From Felixounavirus LF82P2: a stretch of 64,000 bases of DNA. Under the pieces are notes generated by a model that ran no database searches, was not told the DNA's origin, and saw only the letters and a program-made list of their open reading frames with translations. Positions 23,567-28,774 of this stretch are shown here, one piece after another. The stretch lies in the sequence record OZ035741.1. One strand, written 5' to 3'. Within the stretch, counting starts at the first letter, position 1; each line of letters begins with the position of its first letter. The position numbers and the translations under genes are program-made.

Positions 23567-23596
23567 AAGGCTCCTTTTTACGGGAGCCTTTTTTGT
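23567..23596. terminator. intrinsic terminator between convergent modules
   Basis: stem AAGGCTCC / GGAGCCTT with 8-nt loop, then TTTTGTTTT; lies between the + strand structural operon and the - strand thyA operon. Confidence 0.6.
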
Positions 23597-23597
23597 T

Positions 23598-24497
23598 TTA
23601 CTTACCTACTGACAGAGGTGCTTCAATCTTCCCTGCATGTTGGTAGTTGTTAATGCCACCAATAAAATCACTTGCAGTAAGATGTTTTAAGTCACTTAAA
23701 GTGTTAAGTGGTACACCAATCTCAAAAGTAGGTGCATGGAACTCTTCGTTGTTCATCAGTTCATAAACCTGCTTCATATGATTCTGATAAATCTGAGTAT
23801 CCCCAAAGACACCTATCAAGTATCGTGGAGTGTACCCAGTCATCTTACAAAGAACTTCCAGAATAAAACCATAAGACGCAATATTAAACGGAAGTCCTAA
23901 AAAGGTGTCTACAGAACGTTGATACCATTGTAAGTCAACTTCACCTTCGTTAGTGATATAAATCTGAAACAGAACATGACAAGGTGCTAAAGCCATCGAG
24001 TTGGCTGCAATATCTGCTGCATTCCAAGCATTAACAAGCATGTAACGGTCTGTGATATCACCTTTCATCTTCGTTACTAAGGTCTCTAACTGGTCTACAA
24101 CACAACCATTATGACCTTCAAAGTTTCTCCACTGAACCCCGTAGATTCTCCCACCTGCATCCTCTAACCAGTCTTGCTCAGAAGAATAGTTAGAGCTTAA
24201 CCAGCGTTTAAAGTCATCTGACCAGATAGTCCAGCGTTCTCCATCATTTTCACCCCAAGTACGGTAACGGAGTTCGCCAAGTTTATTCTCACCATTCAGG
24301 AACCATAAAGCTTCCCCAATAACTTGCCGTGTAAACACCTGTTTAGATGTTAAGAGTGGAAAACCAGTACGCATATCAAAGCGAAACTGTGGTGGAGCAA
24401 ATGCAGAGATAACATCTCCAGTTCTTGTAGTACGCAGTTCACCAACGGATAAAACATGGTTCAGTATATTTTTGTAACTTGAATCTGCTTGTGACAT
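23598..24497 (-). CDS. thyA: thymidylate synthase
   Basis: clear ThyA motifs: RTGTG-like RTTRTGD, GFPLLTSK, WFLNGE, SAWN-like VNAWN, ALAPCH active-site Cys, LYQRS-like QWYQRSVDTFLGLPFNIASY, GDTQIYQNHM. Confidence 0.9.
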   Translation of the reverse strand: MSQADSSYKNILNHVLSVGELRTTRTGDVISAFAPPQFRFDMRTGFPLLTSKQVFTRQVIGEALWFLNGENKLGELRYRTWGENDGERWTIWSDDFKRWLSSNYSSEQDWLEDAGGRIYGVQWRNFEGHNGCVVDQLETLVTKMKGDITDRYMLVNAWNAADIAANSMALAPCHVLFQIYITNEGEVDLQWYQRSVDTFLGLPFNIASYGFILEVLCKMTGYTPRYLIGVFGDTQIYQNHMKQVYELMNNEEFHAPTFEIGVPLNTLSDLKHLTASDFIGGINNYQHAGKIEAPLSVGK

Positions 24498-24498
24498 A

Positions 24499-25044
24499 TC
24501 AAAAGTGTCCTTTTACTTGTGGAACATAGATTTCAAAGGTTGCTTTACCATCTACTGATGGTTTTGACTGAATCTTAGCGAAAATTTGACGGTCATGCAA
24601 CTTATCAAAGAAATTCTCAAAAGGTAGATGCACAGTTGCCTCTTCAGTAACTTCATGGAAAACTGTATGGAACACTACATCAGCATACGGTAAAGCACTG
24701 ACAAGAATACCTACACCACCAATTACGAAGACGTCTTCTTCAATATTACTATCAAGATACTTTAAAAATGCTCCAAAAGAATCTTGATGAGCCTTAGCAA
24801 ACATAACATCATCTTTGGTGAAGTCCATACCATAATAAGGCACAGAATTTGTTAAGATGAGGTTTGTACGTTCTGGTAAAGGTTTATTGCCCAGAGTCTT
24901 AAAAGTCTCGTTACCCATAACTACTAAGTTGTCTTTAGTAAGTCTCTTAAACTCTTGCATATCCTGTTTATGTCTAGGCCACGGCATACCAGTCGGTGTA
25001 CCAAATTCACCGTTTTCACCACTTGCAAATATTAGCTTAATCAT
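24499..25044 (-). CDS. folA: dihydrofolate reductase
   Basis: DHFR motifs MPW, VVMGNETFKTLGNKPLPERTNLIL, VIGG; directly downstream of thyA. Confidence 0.85.
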   Translation of the reverse strand: MIKLIFASGENGEFGTPTGMPWPRHKQDMQEFKRLTKDNLVVMGNETFKTLGNKPLPERTNLILTNSVPYYGMDFTKDDVMFAKAHQDSFGAFLKYLDSNIEEDVFVIGGVGILVSALPYADVVFHTVFHEVTEEATVHLPFENFFDKLHDRQIFAKIQSKPSVDGKATFEIYVPQVKGHF

Positions 25045-25301
25045 TTTGTAAACCCTTTCTTAATGAACCAGTTGATGACACTCTTCACAGCTTTATTGCT
25101 ATGGTAGATTAAGTGTGGTGTAGGTTGGTATGAACCATAAGCCCAGAAAGCAATGATTTCATTACACCCTGTACACCTTGTACTCTCTTCAGCGATATGA
25201 CCATTGACTATTTCACTTACCTCACCTTGCAAGTCTGTACATCCACAATGTGGACATCGGATAGGTGTTCCATCAGACTCATAGCAGTGTTCAATTTTCA
25301 T
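25041..25301 (-). CDS. zinc-ribbon protein
   Basis: 86 aa with CPHCGC ... CTGC four-Cys pattern. Confidence 0.45.
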   Translation of the reverse strand: MKIEHCYESDGTPIRCPHCGCTDLQGEVSEIVNGHIAEESTRCTGCNEIIAFWAYGSYQPTPHLIYHSNKAVKSVINWFIKKGFTK

Positions 25302-25817
25302 CTATTTAACCTCAAAAACTGGCTCAAGAACCAATATAAAGTCTACACAGTCATCTTCTTCATCCAGAATACCATCAAAGTTCTTAGGAACGAAGTCGAA
25401 GAGGCTCATAACAAAACAGTCAGAAGTGACCCTGATAGTTCCTCCAATGTTCTCTACAGTTAACACTGTACGACTTTCTTTTACCTCCCTCAGAAGATTA
25501 CCCACAAAGTCATCTAAGAAGTACTTCATCAGTGACTTAAACCCTTTAGGATAATCTGTACCAGAGTATGTTTCAATCTGAGGCACAAGCTTAACATTTA
25601 TACTAGTCTTTGTTAAGAACGTGTTAGAGAACATACTATCAGGTAACTTACAAACAGTCTTCCCAGTACCTTCATGTTCAATCTCAACAAAACCAGCTTC
25701 GTCGCCACATGTAACTATTTTAAAAGATGCTTCATTCTCATACTGTGAAGCCATAAACTTTTTAAGCATCTCTTTAAGGAAATCTGCATGAGCATCTTGT
25801 AAGTAGATATCAATCAT
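25302..25817 (-). CDS. hypothetical protein
   Basis: 171 aa ORF, no recognisable motif. Confidence 0.4.
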   Translation of the reverse strand: MIDIYLQDAHADFLKEMLKKFMASQYENEASFKIVTCGDEAGFVEIEHEGTGKTVCKLPDSMFSNTFLTKTSINVKLVPQIETYSGTDYPKGFKSLMKYFLDDFVGNLLREVKESRTVLTVENIGGTIRVTSDCFVMSLFDFVPKNFDGILDEEDDCVDFILVLEPVFEVK

Positions 25818-25830
25818 AGTTAATCACCTA

Positions 25831-26190
25831 TTATGGGAACAAACACTTAATGTCATCGTTTTTGAAAACGAAACTTGTGTAGTTATGACCATCAACATCC
25901 AACCAAACAGCCTGAACATCTACACCATCAAGATTCTGGTAAAGCTCTTTGATGAAGTGGTCTTTCACAAGCTGACTGCTAGTTGTTTCCAGCTTAATGT
26001 TCGAGATTGCTGAACCTACAGCCATATAGCCCATGACACGTTTCTTCTCAGTATGCTTAATCTTACCATCTTTGTAAGCCATAATGAGATTGGAGAGAAT
26101 CTTCACACCATAATACTTTTCAAGGTGAGTGGGTACGCCATAAAAGCCTAATGCGAAGTTTTCAGAGTGGATAATGTTTTCACGTTTCAT
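25831..26190 (-). CDS. hypothetical protein
   Basis: 119 aa ORF, no recognisable motif. Confidence 0.4.
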   Translation of the reverse strand: MKRENIIHSENFALGFYGVPTHLEKYYGVKILSNLIMAYKDGKIKHTEKKRVMGYMAVGSAISNIKLETTSSQLVKDHFIKELYQNLDGVDVQAVWLDVDGHNYTSFVFKNDDIKCLFP

Positions 26191-26191
26191 A

Positions 26192-26491
26192 TTAATCTGC
26201 CAACCTTAAATTAAAATTAACACCAAATTTTTCACATACTTCCAACATATACTCAAGGGAGACGTTACCAGTGAGATGGATTATGTTGGATACACGAGCC
26301 TGAGAGATACCACAAATTTTAGCAACTTGCTCTTGAGAAAGACCTCTGGATTTAATCTCTCTCTTAAAACGATGTGCAACGAAATCTCTCATTTCATCTA
26401 CATCCATTGGACAAATATAACTCTCCATTTCAGCCTCTCTATCAGCCTCCCAATCATCTTGTGGAGCATAAGGGTCAAAAATCTCATTCAT
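26192..26491 (-). CDS. HTH (XRE/Cro-like) DNA-binding protein
   Basis: helix-turn-helix LSQEQVAKICGISQARVSNIIH; track start at 26521 is TTG, first ATG at 26491 (MNEIF...) overlaps the stop of the upstream ORF by 8 nt. Confidence 0.6.
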   Translation of the reverse strand: MNEIFDPYAPQDDWEADREAEMESYICPMDVDEMRDFVAHRFKREIKSRGLSQEQVAKICGISQARVSNIIHLTGNVSLEYMLEVCEKFGVNFNLRLAD

Positions 26492-26696
26492 CTTTCTTCT
26501 TCCGTTTGCGTGAAGTGTCAATCAATGAATCTATGTTTGTAGCCCTAACCTTTTCACGTTCATCGTTAAGATAATCGTCAAGAGCCTTTTCAATCTGTGA
26601 ATCATCTTGACAGATGACTGTAAAGACTGTAAATCCGTCTGTATCGTCAATTATCTTACCATAACCGCTTCTGGGATGTAACTTTTTAAGAGCCAT
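26484..26696 (-). CDS. small protein with basic C-terminal tail, coupled to HTH gene
   Basis: 70 aa, C-terminus SRKRKKKDE; stop overlaps the HTH gene start. Confidence 0.4.
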   Translation of the reverse strand: MALKKLHPRSGYGKIIDDTDGFTVFTVICQDDSQIEKALDDYLNDEREKVRATNIDSLIDTSRKRKKKDE

Positions 26697-26697
26697 A

Positions 26698-27081
26698 TCA
26701 AATACCTGTGCAGCTTCTGTTTTCTAAGAAATACTCAACACCATACATAGCTTTTTGCATCAAATCTTCTTTAAACTGGATACGGTGGTTGAGCATAGTT
26801 TGTACATCAATATCGTCATGGTGTTTATCTTTAATATTTGCAGATTGCAGGAAATACTCTGCAAGAACACGATATTGATAGTCAGTTACCTTATCAGTCA
26901 TCTCTGTCAAAGACTCTTCAGAGATTGGTTTAAGTAGCTCACCTTTAGATAGAGCAACACCTTTAACAATCTGGCAAGTGTCTTCTGGGACACCTGATAA
27001 GTCCACATTGGGAAGTTCTGTTGCATTGACTGGTAAATTCATTGCCATAACCATTGCAGCAGCTAATAAAATCTTTTTCAT
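26698..27081 (-). CDS. secreted/periplasmic protein with Sec signal peptide
   Basis: N-terminus MKKILLAAAMVMAMNLPVNA then TE; RBS GAGG 6 nt upstream of ATG at 27081. Confidence 0.5.
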   Translation of the reverse strand: MKKILLAAAMVMAMNLPVNATELPNVDLSGVPEDTCQIVKGVALSKGELLKPISEESLTEMTDKVTDYQYRVLAEYFLQSANIKDKHHDDIDVQTMLNHRIQFKEDLMQKAMYGVEYFLENRSCTGI

Positions 27082-27125
27082 AATGACCTCAAAGTTATAT
27101 TAAATTTTGTATTACGTTGAGTATA

Positions 27126-27171
27126 AAAATAAGCTATAACACCTGACTTGTCAACAGATTTTATAGCTTAT
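27126..27171 (-). promoter_or_regulatory. putative promoter (-35 TTGACA on minus strand) flanked by 10-bp inverted repeat
   Basis: minus-strand TTGACA at 27149-27154, weak -10 TATTTT at 27126-27131; ATAAGCTATA (27129-27138) and TATAGCTTAT (27162-27171) form a perfect inverted repeat. Confidence 0.3.
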
Positions 27172-27189
27172 TTGGCAGATTTTTTATAA

Positions 27190-27430
27190 GGCTACTGCCA
27201 TCCTTCCATACCTTACCTTACCACACCTAACCATACCTAACCAAACTACACCATACAATACCTTGTTAAAAGACCCTTTTAAAGACATTTTAAAAAGGTA
27301 AGTCTCATTTTAATGTAGCTGAGACTAACTACCCTTACCTAACCTTACATCACCTTACAAAGCCAAACCTCACAATACCGAACCATACCTAGCATCACTT
27401 AAAAACCCTCTTAAAAGACTCTTAAATGAT
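27190..27430. repeat. G-depleted (C/A-rich) degenerate tandem repeat region, two ~115-bp units
   Basis: + strand 27199-27264 contains no G (CCTTACC / CCTAACC-type heptamers); second unit 27318-27400 has 3 G; each unit ends with TTAAAAG(A)C-type motifs; noncoding. Confidence 0.5.
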
Positions 27431-27485
27431 GCTGGTGAGTACCCGTTGGTTTATGCTGCTCAGTATACTCACCAAATTTTCTATG

Positions 27486-27674
27486 TCAACAACTTTCTAA
27501 TAAAGTTTTATGAAGATTTTGCTTAACGACCCGCCTCACATGCCTGTGTTCTTTCTTAATAAAGAGTGACCTCTTCTTGTCAGAGCGCCTATTCTTGTAA
27601 GTATTACTAGGATACTTATCATGAACCGGACAACAGCTACCCGGATTTGTAAACTTGATAATCTCTCTTTTCAC
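27486..27674 (-). CDS. small basic protein
   Basis: 62 aa, Arg/Lys-rich, immediately downstream of ligase. Confidence 0.35.
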   Translation of the reverse strand: MKREIIKFTNPGSCCPVHDKYPSNTYKNRRSDKKRSLFIKKEHRHVRRVVKQNLHKTLLESC

Positions 27675-28774
27675 TATTCATAATCCCTAATAACTAGCCC
27701 AACAGGGAACTGTAAAGAACCCTTACGAGTCATCTTCTGGAACTGAACCGTTAAAGGCTTCCCGATAAACTCTTCAGGATGCTCAGCAAGATACTGTTTC
27801 TTCTCGTGTGTAGTTTTCCATGAAACATCTACAAAGACGTTAGGAAGAGTCTCTACAACGAACTTACCATGACCACGCTTATCGGTCTTTACACCAGTCA
27901 CTTTAAACTCTTCAGTGTGCATCTTCTTGTGCTTAATCAAGAAGTATGAACGGTGACAACACTCATAGAAGGAGTCTTCAGAGATTGAACGGTACATTGC
28001 ACCTTCAAACTTAGCTTCAACCCACTTATCATGAGCTTCATCAAACTCTTCCCAAGAATTTACACGGATAGTCTGTACAGGAACAACTCTACAGGTATCC
28101 CCAAGCTCAACAATAGGTGAGTTATCAATAACTTCACGACGCTCAGGCCAAGATTTTGAATTGTCACAGATATCATACCAGTAGAATTTAAGAAGGTGAC
28201 GGTCTGGATTGTCAGCATTCTTAATCATAGATACAATATCTTCTAAGTCCCAACCATGAGCATAAATCTCTCCGTCAAAGTCTTCAACTTGCGGATGTAA
28301 TTTAAGCAACAAAAGCAAATCTGGGATTAGTTCTGTTGGAACGTTGTAAACAGTATTCTCACGAGAATAAGCTGTGAAACTGACTGCATCAGCATCTCTT
28401 GAAATTCTACAACGGACACCATCAAGTTTTGGTTGAGCATCAGCAGGGAACTTCAGATACTTTGCATGACTAACCTTTGCAGCATCATGAGCAAGCTGTA
28501 CACCTACCTTCTCAGTATTCTGTGCAGACTCTTTTGTGTAAGCATAACCTTTGCGGTCAACTTGCTTTTTATACTTAGCAGCAACTTCAAAGAGGGCTTG
28601 CTGTTCAGCGTTACGCTCATTCTTTTTACCGATGTTTTTAGGCTCTGCTGTATACTCTTCAAACATCATCTTGCCATTTTCTTTACCGTAGGTTGTAATA
28701 ACTTTGTCACCTACAGCAACGCATGACCAGACGTTGAAGGAACCGTCTTTATTTTGTTTGTACAGAATTGTCAT
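27674..28774 (-). CDS. ATP-dependent DNA ligase
   Basis: adenylation motif I KLDGVR (PKLDGVRCRI); 366 aa, typical of compact phage ligases. Confidence 0.75.
   Translation of the reverse strand: MTILYKQNKDGSFNVWSCVAVGDKVITTYGKENGKMMFEEYTAEPKNIGKKNERNAEQQALFEVAAKYKKQVDRKGYAYTKESAQNTEKVGVQLAHDAAKVSHAKYLKFPADAQPKLDGVRCRISRDADAVSFTAYSRENTVYNVPTELIPDLLLLLKLHPQVEDFDGEIYAHGWDLEDIVSMIKNADNPDRHLLKFYWYDICDNSKSWPERREVIDNSPIVELGDTCRVVPVQTIRVNSWEEFDEAHDKWVEAKFEGAMYRSISEDSFYECCHRSYFLIKHKKMHTEEFKVTGVKTDKRGHGKFVVETLPNVFVDVSWKTTHEKKQYLAEHPEEFIGKPLTVQFQKMTRKGSLQFPVGLVIRDYE

Follow-up and report, generated by a model that had tools for sequence, protein, structure and literature searches.

Six conserved small genes and a palindrome-bearing promoter next to orphan vrRNA arrays in Felixounavirus LF82P2

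Introduction

VIPR is among the described systems that come closest to the locus considered here, in which a block of six small minus-strand genes with a palindrome-bearing promoter adjoins arrays of short repeats in Felixounavirus LF82P2 (sequence record OZ035741.1; the whole stretch of 64,000 nucleotides that was analysed is referred to as the window). According to the part of the preprint text that is available, the RAMP-like Vipr protein binds RNAs, the vrRNAs, that consist of alternating GGY and NN motifs and a structured tail, and it recognises DNA via the NN dinucleotides with a 1-nt skip (bioRxiv 10.64898/2026.04.26.720920). The model system is phage SUSP1, in which the vrRNAs flank the genes vipr and vap1, and the natural targets are mostly a satellite phage. 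The same portion of text defines VIPR loci as vipr plus vap only and describes the type II Vap proteins as winged-helix- or helix-turn-helix (HTH)-like DNA binders; type II vrRNAs are recognised there by 9-16 tandem YNNGG units with a conserved GGY and a hypervariable NN, followed by a structured and conserved 3' tail (bioRxiv 10.64898/2026.04.26.720920).

A preliminary description of the LF82P2 block had proposed that it might hold host-takeover, superinfection-exclusion or anti-defence functions. Such functions fit the absence of fitness effects in phage SUSP1, the fast divergence of one of the six genes and the presence of a VIPR locus next door, and they stand as a reasonable, though unproven, suggestion. 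Taken as a whole, the block is probably explained as a set of conditional host-adaptation or inter-phage-conflict genes of a shared operon, not as core replication or regulation genes, because selection maintains the genes and yet a related phage did not need them for lytic growth on a laboratory host. The palindrome, in turn, would represent the downstream edge of the VIPR array, where it may serve as a terminator or processing hairpin for transcripts from an upstream promoter (P1) and also carry the promoter of the block itself (P2); it does not appear to be primarily an operator of the HTH protein.

A probable shared operon of genes kept by selection

The window derives from a Felixounavirus, that is, a Felix O1-like myovirus. 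A megablast search with positions 24400-27700 retrieved 254 phage records, 212 of which have at least 80% query coverage and 90-96% identity, nearly all of them Felixounavirus of Escherichia, Salmonella and Shigella; the record ranked closest is 94% identical. The Felixounavirus block is also present at 92-100% identity in MG065668.1 ('Campylobacter phage A126', 43 kb) and GU169904.1 ('Staphylococcus phage SA1', 147 kb), which are most likely mislabelled or chimeric assemblies. In annotated relatives, the tail fibre and holin genes on the plus strand are followed by a bidirectional terminator, and then by td, frd, the six small genes, an intergenic region and the DNA ligase gene on the minus strand. 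The window has a bidirectional intrinsic terminator at 23567-23590 (AAGGCTCC-loop-GGAGCCTT, with T-runs on both strands) between the convergent holin and td genes, which corresponds to t79/t80 of the Felix O1 paper.

An open reading frame (ORF) check found all six minus-strand genes where they had been placed. In the direction of transcription these are sec127 (26698-27081, 127 amino acids, a predicted exported protein, phrog_4332), s70 (26484-26696, 70 amino acids, phrog_4473), hth99 (26192-26491, 99 amino acids from its ATG, with an XRE/Cro-C1-type HTH, phrog_1373), u119 (25831-26190, 119 amino acids, alpha/beta, phrog_4116), u171 (25302-25817, 171 amino acids, phrog_4422) and zn86 (25041-25301, 86 amino acids, a C4 zinc ribbon CPHC...CTGC, phrog_2993). 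The view that they have no metabolic homologues is borne out, and they are real, small and lineage-restricted genes. Two elements of the preliminary description had to be corrected: the genes had been placed downstream of folA, whereas they are transcribed ahead of frd (folA) and hence lie upstream of it, and the label 'accessory', in the sense of variable, is wrong for a block of which five of the six genes occur in 258 of 258 related records.

The order sec127-s70-HTH-u119 is syntenic in all 258 records of Felixounavirus, Suspvirus and Mooglevirus, including Suspvirus SUSP2 and Mooglevirus Mijalis, to which the amino acid identity of the window's proteins is 32-33% for sec127, 54-63% for s70, 70-76% for the HTH protein and 66-71% for u119. 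An additional 166-amino-acid gene (phrog_9143) is found in the u171 region of Suspvirus and Mooglevirus, and not in the window. The ratios of non-synonymous to synonymous substitution (dN/dS; Nei-Gojobori, 9-28 Felixounavirus orthologues per gene) are 0.075 for zn86, 0.13 for u171, 0.037 for u119, 0.12 for the HTH gene, 0.018 for s70 and 0.091 for sec127, with td (0.022) and frd (0.14) as references. All six genes are under purifying selection comparable to that on td and frd. The six ORFs would form the promoter-proximal part of a long minus-strand operon, sec127, s70, HTH, u119, u171, zn86, frd and td, that is common to Felixounavirus, Suspvirus and Mooglevirus.

Published data bear on both the expression and the importance of these genes. 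Reverse-transcription PCR in Felix O1 found ORFs 83, 84 and 87 to be maximal at 25 min and ORF 81 at 10 min (PMC3185647, Table 3); by gene order, with td as ORF 80 and frd as ORF 81, the three later ORFs would be u171, u119 and sec127. Temporal regulation in Felix O1 is stated to be unknown by the same authors (PMC3185647). In the SUSP1 table of the CRISPRi-ART study, the orthologues are listed as agp031 (phrog_2993), agp032 (phrog_4422), agp034 (phrog_4116), agp035 (phrog_1373), agp036 (phrog_4473) and agp037 (phrog_4332) (PMC11879866). All genes from agp031 to agp037 were scored 'Not Fit', the six orthologues with fitness values from -1.6 to +0.4 and KS p of at least 0.2 (PMC11879866, supplementary file 16), and these scores argue against an essential regulatory or replication role on the laboratory host.

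The adjoining vrRNA arrays

Between the block and the ligase gene, the minus strand carries two repeat units. Unit 1 (27297-27432) consists of a leader hairpin (27432-27391), 12 YNNGG repeats (27392-27335) and the tail GGGTAGTTAGTCTCAGCTACATTAAAATGAGACTTACC (27334-27297), followed by TTTTT, and unit 2 (27174-27296) consists of the leader AAAATGTCTTTAAAAGGGTCTTTTAA, 12 YNNGG repeats (27265-27208) and the tail GGAAGGATGGCAGTAGCCTTATAAAAAATCTGCC (27207-27174). Leaders of such units are either a hairpin with several G-U pairs, which forms in the minus-sense RNA only, or a box AAAAGGTCTTTAAAnAGGGTCTTTTAA, and the units end in a hairpin with the conserved loop AGCYACRTTAAAA, whose stems covary between four paralogue types. 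Upstream of unit 1 lies P1 (27462-27489, minus strand), a predicted near-consensus sigma-70 promoter of the form TTGACA-16-TATACT, which matches 11 of 12 consensus positions, is the best in the 23-30 kb region and is conserved in relatives. Transcription of the vrRNA units is expected to start here and may continue into the operon.

Further features surround P1. A conserved 62-amino-acid ORF (27486-27674, minus strand, phrog_5428, dN/dS ~0.10) follows the ligase gene and has its TGA stop inside the TTGACA of P1. A perfect 9-bp inverted repeat (27433-27441 / 27466-27474, GGTGAGTA.../...TACTCACC) brackets the -10 element and start region of P1; like P2, then, P1 is set within an inverted repeat, but the geometry is not the same.

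The 5-nt GGTNN periodicity occurs nowhere else in the 64 kb. Across 32 loci, 74 of 81 arrays have a length of exactly 3 modulo 5, with 10-19 YNNGG units (counted as for the 12-unit arrays of the window), and throughout these arrays GGY is conserved and NN hypervariable. The arrays of the window have the features by which the vrRNAs of type II VIPR are recognised. Several other readings of GGTNN arrays, namely an R-loop origin, an RNA polymerase pause array, a G-quadruplex, a TRAP-like protein-binding RNA, a Rho rut site on the opposite strand and a Shine-Dalgarno-like ribosome sponge, are superseded by this assignment. For vipr and vap1, tblastn gave matches with E >2 only within the 64 kb, about 22 kb of the genome lying outside the window. 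The locus is an orphan-guide variant of VIPR: it contains vrRNAs as defined, and neither vipr nor vap within the 64 kb.

Relatives show what the complete locus looks like. Two genes lie between their arrays, phrog_4652 (195 amino acids) and phrog_5926 (146 amino acids), which are agp039 and agp038 of SUSP1, and the 195-amino-acid protein matches PDB 36pp, 'SUSP1 Vipr protein', with E 2e-130. The vipr gene is present in 118 of 258 related records, and the other 140 are without a vipr-like gene; Felix O1, LinBro and ASO1A, for example, have a single vrRNA unit and no vipr. All eight vipr-less loci that were examined, including that of Felix O1, keep undegraded vrRNA arrays, strict GGY conservation being 75% in vipr-less and 77% in vipr-positive arrays, and, of the two arrays of the window, that of unit 2 recurs unchanged in a phage that does carry vipr.

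Vipr (195 amino acids) and Vap1 (146 amino acids) are 97-100% identical across Felixounavirus, Suspvirus and Mooglevirus, and the flanking genes are 33-76% identical. Among the loci of relatives, the vipr-vap cassette lies at 4696-5723 of L001, 5368-6398 of L004 and 5558-6588 of L005, and is also found in L012. Because both proteins are nearly identical amid such divergent flanks, and because a block of about 95 nt next to the arrays (see below) is identical as well, the sequences suggest that the entire VIPR segment was exchanged horizontally, or underwent gene conversion, in the recent past. The arrangement leader A-tail 1, leader B-tail 4 of the window would be the product expected from recombination between the two 'leader A-tail 1' units of a locus like that of JLBYU32, which has five units.

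When targets of the two vrRNAs were sought by the 1-nt-skip rule, neither GTDB genomes nor IMG/VR contained an exact match over the full length; a search with sub-patterns of 10 NN returned chance hits only, in AT-rich, unrelated metagenome-assembled genomes, and no self-target of at least 75% was found in the window. Among the matches listed by a scan of IMG/VR for (GGTNN)6GGT, many viral contigs unrelated to these phages have similar arrays. Those in L043, L053, L088, L042, L050, L060, L062 and L086 are degenerate (GGTNN)n arrays, often in several copies, with conserved spacers that are specific to the contig, and presumably represent other VIPR types. Such arrays often end in GGTAAGGTAAGG just ahead of a start codon, or adjoin a downstream tRNA gene (L056, L105). 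Plain microsatellites were also among the matches listed (L035, L051, L045, L075).

The palindrome and the predicted promoter P2

The promoter of the block, P2 (27126-27154, minus strand), is a predicted sigma-70-like promoter ahead of sec127, with TTGACA at 27154-27149 and TATTTT 17 nt downstream, which together match 10 of 12 consensus positions. The same site was independently annotated as a promoter by the authors of phage ASO1A, and it is invariant in four lineages. The palindrome (27127-27173; AAATAAGCTATAA-21 nt-TTATAGCTTATTT) surrounds its -35 hexamer. The repeat and the TTGACA that had been reported are both real; the arms, given earlier as a perfect 10-bp inverted repeat, are perfect over 13 bp (27127-27139 / 27161-27173), or extend over 19 nt at 89%. 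This is the sole perfect inverted repeat of at least 12 bp with a loop of at most 40 nt in the 64 kb. Since Markov-1 simulations contain a mean of 0.33 such 12-mer repeats per sequence, it is only mildly unusual by chance alone, and it is conservation among the aligned relatives, not rarity, that marks the palindrome as real.

This conservation has sharp limits. A block of about 95 nt, composed of GGTATGGAAGGATGGCAGTAGCCTTATAAAAAATCTGCC, the palindrome with its TTGACA, and TTATACT, lies directly upstream of the divergent sec127 region and is identical in Felixounavirus, SUSP2, Mijalis and a fourth lineage, save for three variable sites. All three sites fall in the loop or the extension of the palindrome, with the arms and TTGACA invariant, and sequence divergence sets in straight after TTATACT.

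As minus-sense RNA, the palindrome folds into an 18-bp hairpin that is followed by UUUUUAUAC. The sense strand reaches -17.8 kcal/mol (z -4.35) and the antisense strand -14.5 kcal/mol, the sense hairpin being more stable because of its G-U pairs. The stem is AU-rich and is followed by a U-run, the loop has 9 nt, and the structure was not called by a consensus terminator scan; an Rfam search of 26900-27800 gave no match. The palindrome starts one base past the tail of the last vrRNA, and it stands directly after the last tail in every genome, whether this has 1, 2 or 5 units. Transcription of the operon would start at P2 inside the palindrome and/or read through from the strong upstream P1, and in transcripts from P1 the palindrome would fold as the 18-bp hairpin with its U-run, ending or insulating the VIPR vrRNA array.

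The proteins of the block

Each of the six proteins is a full-length member of a PHROG family, and all of these families except that of the HTH protein are annotated as 'unknown function'. Scans of all ORFs against Pfam, NCBIfam, PADLOC and PHROGs returned only the HTH domain, generic zinc-ribbon hints and PHROGs of unknown function, and PDB searches with the six proteins, by single sequence and by profile, gave no meaningful match. The homology searches proposed in the preliminary description have confirmed the HTH domain and brought up no characterised relatives for the other five proteins, which are, by sequence, members of catalogued but uncharacterised phage families. A match to PDB 8vd6 ('CAP REPEAT') is meaningless, this being a designed repeat protein that aligns with the HTH helices, and the GenBank labels 'nucleoside triphosphate hydrolase', 'heme-degrading enzyme-like' and 'Walker B motif' are unsupported by any profile or fold search.

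The first gene, sec127, encodes a protein with the Sec signal peptide that had been claimed for it: judged by rule, MKK is a basic n-region, ILLAAAMVMAMNLPV a hydrophobic core and VNA/TE an AxA-type cleavage site. Orthologues of only 32-33% identity retain an AxA site (ASA/MK, AVA/MK, AYA/DM) and two invariant cysteines, Cys36 and Cys124, whose modelled pairing is incompatible with the cytoplasm and is consistent with periplasmic folding. The mature part is predicted, with high confidence, to be a three-helix bundle. The gene is the fastest-diverging member of the block, with 32-33% identity between genera as opposed to 66-76% for its neighbours, and identity falls sharply from directly after TTATACT. 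The sec127 family is highly diversified, since the 33 cluster representatives that a profile search collected have identities of 29-42% and many are singletons. Protein P0023 of Shigella phage vB_SflM_004 is chimeric, its signal peptide being of the Felixounavirus type and its mature domain of the Mooglevirus type.

Superinfection-exclusion proteins of the periplasm or envelope are familiar from virulent phages and include Sp and Imm of T4 and Llp of T5, of which Llp is a lipoprotein and Imm a membrane protein. The sec127 product would be exported by Sec, cleaved after VNA and stapled by a disulfide, and would act in the periplasm in some fast-evolving interaction, for which the leading guess is superinfection exclusion or modulation of the envelope. 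Because it is predicted to be exported and disulfide-stapled, is hypervariable, is non-essential in SUSP1 and adjoins a locus of inter-phage warfare, sec127 is a reasonable, if unproven, best candidate for a function of the exclusion or anti-defence type.

The second and third genes overlap. As had been noted, the ATG of hth99 (26491-26489) and the stop of s70 (26486-26484) share an 8-nt overlap, ATGAATGA, and an identical s70/HTH overlap is annotated in SUSP2, Mijalis and SUSP1. The identification of hth99 as an XRE-type HTH protein holds: residues 43-93 match PF01381 with 39.7 bits (cut-off 23, E 4.9e-10), PF13744 is matched as well (E 1.6e-6), and the family, phrog_1373, is labelled 'transcriptional regulator', so that hth99 is, by sequence, a member of the XRE family. 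The HTH domain is preceded by an acidic N-terminal extension of 35 amino acids. A longer, 109-amino-acid form from an upstream TTG is less likely, as the orthologues begin with MNE[IV]FDPY. By tblastn, hth99 was found in the same ~258 Ounavirinae records as s70, plus two weak Zymomonas matches. The s70 protein has a basic C-terminal tail (SRKRKKKDE) and is under the strongest constraint in the block; its gene adjoins the HTH gene in 258 of 258 records and was found nowhere else by tblastn. An exhaustive HMMER phmmer search of 1.84 billion representatives returned its own cluster and spurious matches, and no relative outside these phages. Two giant cadherin-repeat adhesins were among the spurious matches, their scores being the sum of ~12 repeat matches of ~25 bits. 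The HTH protein would be made by translational coupling with the basic-tailed s70 and may act as a non-essential DNA-binding regulator, perhaps of its own operon or of a competitor's genes.

Among sec127, s70, the HTH gene and u119, only u119 was found in distant Ounavirinae. Its homologues occur in 300 records (tblastn), including Ounavirinae of Erwinia (Kolesnikvirus), Hafnia and Cronobacter at 35-36% identity, and in the Erwinia and Hafnia representatives examined the gene still lies between ligase and frd. The structure of u119 is modelled with high confidence as an alpha/beta fold, one half of which is winged-helix-like, and the high-confidence models of u119 and sec127 matched no characterised fold. 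The protein would be a phage-specific alpha/beta fold that travels with the ligase/DHFR module throughout the subfamily; because of this association and its winged-helix-like half, it is probably a nucleic-acid-associated helper.

The remaining two genes lie next to frd. u171 belongs to phrog_4422 (E 2.5e-91), has zero matches in Pfam, NCBIfam, PADLOC and PDB, and is the least conserved member of the block, with 40% identity in Mijalis. Its orthologue is split into two ORFs (207 + 303 bp) in SUSP2 (L004 2767-3284) and is a single 519-bp gene in SUSP1, the split being either a frameshift or pseudogene, or a sequencing error. In zn86, the proposed zinc ribbon is confirmed by CPHC (16-19) and CTGC (43-46), and all four cysteines are retained in the SUSP2 and Mijalis orthologues. 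The protein belongs to phrog_2993 (E 5e-42), a family found in 411 phage records, including Krischvirus and phages of Klebsiella and Vibrio. It scores below the curated cut-offs of Lar (TIGR03655, 18.7 vs 39.6 bits) and ECs_2282 (NF047912, 20.8 vs 37 bits), and its PDB matches all have E >0.3. The stop of zn86 overlaps the start of frd, the dihydrofolate reductase (DHFR) gene, by 4 nt (ATGA).

Alternative explanations

Two other roles of the palindrome have to be weighed against that of an array edge carrying P2. In one, hth99 would bind the two 13-bp arms around the -35 element and autoregulate the operon, possibly with s70 as a co-factor, and this we regard as rather doubtful. It is true that a real XRE HTH protein is encoded in the operon driven by P2, that hth99 has weak PADLOC matches to 'Control_protein', the C-protein of restriction-modification systems, and that the centre of the dyad coincides with TTGACA; the centres of the arms, however, are 34 bp apart and neither arm contains a dyad of its own, an atypical geometry for the site of a 99-amino-acid HTH dimer, and the 64 kb contain neither a second copy of the site nor any repeated short palindromic operator motif besides terminator-like GGGGCT/AGCCCC hairpins. 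The invariance of the arms next to a variable loop would suit an operator, but the HTH protein differs by 24-30% between genera over an identical palindrome, and the conservation extends into the vrRNA tail and parallels that of the 97-100% identical vipr-vap cassette, which accounts for it without HTH binding: as the adjoining tail and cassette are equally conserved, conservation of the palindrome is not evidence that the HTH protein binds there. In favour of this role, the HTH gene and the palindrome are confined to one and the same clade, neither of them occurring in the Kolesnikvirus and Hafnia relatives that were inspected; against it, knocking down the HTH gene was without fitness effect in SUSP1. 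In the other role, the palindrome would be an RNA element alone, a terminator or RNase III-type site that closes the vrRNA array, with TTGACA idle and the operon transcribed by read-through from P1. The stable hairpin (18 bp, -17.8 kcal/mol, z -4.35, followed by a U-run and favoured on the sense strand by G-U pairs), its place right behind the last vrRNA tail in each genome and the weak -10 of P2 (TATTTT) all agree with such an element, which is nevertheless unlikely: a perfect TTGACA with a 17-nt spacer and TAnnnT is kept in all lineages and would hardly be without a use, TTGACA is invariant in a loop that could change freely if only the stem counted, and an effective terminator at this position would starve frd and td of transcription.

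Alternatives have also been considered for the genes themselves. A toxin-antitoxin-like pair, in which s70 would be the toxin, encoded first as in HigBA, HicAB and MqsRA, and hth99 the neutralising antitoxin, had been suggested from the overlap of the two genes; in their order, in overlapping by 8 nt and in being small, the two do resemble toxin-first type II modules. The HTH domain matches antitoxin models only below their cut-offs (HipB-type 23.2 vs 71.65 bits, HigA 20.4 vs 47.7, PezA 22.3 vs 290), which reflects generic HTH similarity, and nothing beyond generic sub-cut-off HTH matches was found among the toxin-antitoxin and defence models of NCBIfam and PADLOC. For s70, searches of Pfam, NCBIfam, PADLOC and PDB gave no significant match and no toxin family, and it has no homologue outside these lytic phages among the 1.84 billion representatives. 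Toxins of such systems are usually patchy in their distribution among phages, whereas s70 is the most constrained gene of the block, and knock-down of the putative antitoxin was harmless to the phage (SUSP1 agp035). In each comparison made, with toxin families and with antitoxin cut-offs, the pair falls outside the toxin-antitoxin systems; the suggestion is unsupported, and we regard it as extremely improbable. It is very improbable, too, that some of the six genes are part of VIPR, either as Vap-like binders (the HTH protein, u119) or by enabling phages without vipr to make use of the vrRNAs they retain. Physical adjacency, the co-occurrence of the arrays and the sec127-s70-HTH block in the same clade, and the undiminished repeat integrity in vipr-less genomes point in this direction, as does the likeness of u119, with its winged-helix-like half, to the winged-helix- or HTH-like DNA binders that the available preprint text gives as type II Vap proteins. 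That text, however, defines VIPR loci as vipr plus vap only, none of the six proteins resembles Vipr or Vap1, and u119 also occurs in Kolesnikvirus and Hafnia-phage loci that are free of arrays within neighbourhoods of ~9 kb.

Several observations weigh against the explanation favoured here, that of conditional or conflict genes behind an array-edge palindrome. The signal peptide of sec127 was recognised by inspection and from its conservation rather than with a trained predictor. The AU-rich stem and 9-nt loop of the hairpin do not pass a simple terminator scan, P2 matches merely 10 of 12 consensus positions and has a weak -10, and the co-distribution of HTH gene and palindrome in one clade is also predicted if the palindrome is an operator. 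Moreover, the Not Fit scores were measured in SUSP1 and not in the phage of the window, and the CRISPRi-ART authors acknowledge false negatives, td and ligase also being Not Fit (PMC11879866).

Implications

The block itself is already known, being present in more than 250 sequenced phages and screened once (SUSP1, Not Fit), and alone it changes little. The toxin-antitoxin reading can be dropped, and the operator reading now faces a concrete rival. With its fast evolution and predicted export, sec127 is a reasonable target for exclusion or host-range assays, and so is u119, which has a confident model and no known relative. What had been described as a palindrome-flanked promoter forms the downstream limit of a VIPR locus that is in a remnant state in more than half of the related records (140/258). 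This vipr-less, array-retaining state is not discussed in the available text of the VIPR preprint, and it bears on the loss, exchange or in-trans use of such loci. One further idea, which we consider improbable, is that the orphan vrRNA units of vipr-less phages are working parts, either guides for the Vipr of a co-infecting relative or satellite or decoys, with the palindrome/P2 and sec127-s70-HTH as their output side; if this were true, the promoter and these three genes would belong to the same inter-phage conflict module as the orphan vrRNAs.

Comparison with known systems

The s70-HTH pair resembles the HigBA, HicAB and MqsRA modules in that a small upstream ORF overlaps a downstream HTH gene, and differs from them in that it is strongly conserved, not patchy, and restricted to a single clade of virulent phages. 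With the XRE/Cro-C1 family (PF01381; C-proteins of restriction-modification systems, phage Cro), hth99 shares an HTH_3 domain above cut-off, a small size and a gene position in an operon behind a palindrome-bearing promoter. Unlike these regulators, it has the acidic 35-amino-acid N-terminal extension, candidate half-sites that are 34 bp apart and not adjacent, no lysogeny module and no knock-down phenotype in SUSP1. Similarly, zn86 is like the Lar and ECs_2282 zinc-ribbon proteins in its CxxC...CxxC spacing and as a small phage or prophage protein; unlike them, it scores half of the cut-offs and has a C-terminal extension of 35 amino acids, the similarity being that of the metal-binding knuckles alone.

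Like Sp and Imm of T4 and Llp of T5, sec127 is a small protein, predicted to be exported, that is encoded in a non-late (early/middle) region of a virulent phage, is non-essential in the laboratory (SUSP1) and diverges rapidly among relatives. It has no sequence or fold similarity to any of them, and is predicted to be a soluble three-helix bundle released by signal peptidase I, unlike the lipoprotein Llp or the membrane protein Imm.

The type II VIPR locus of SUSP1 provides a further parallel. Unlike in SUSP1, vipr and vap are absent from the 64 kb of the window; the six block genes are not described as VIPR components in the available preprint text, which also makes no mention of the palindrome or the promoter. 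The arrays themselves are alike in their 12 YNNGG repeats, in the hypervariable NN and in a hairpin tail of ~34-38 nt, and they sit in the same slot between ligase and sec127 as in SUSP1 and SUSP2.

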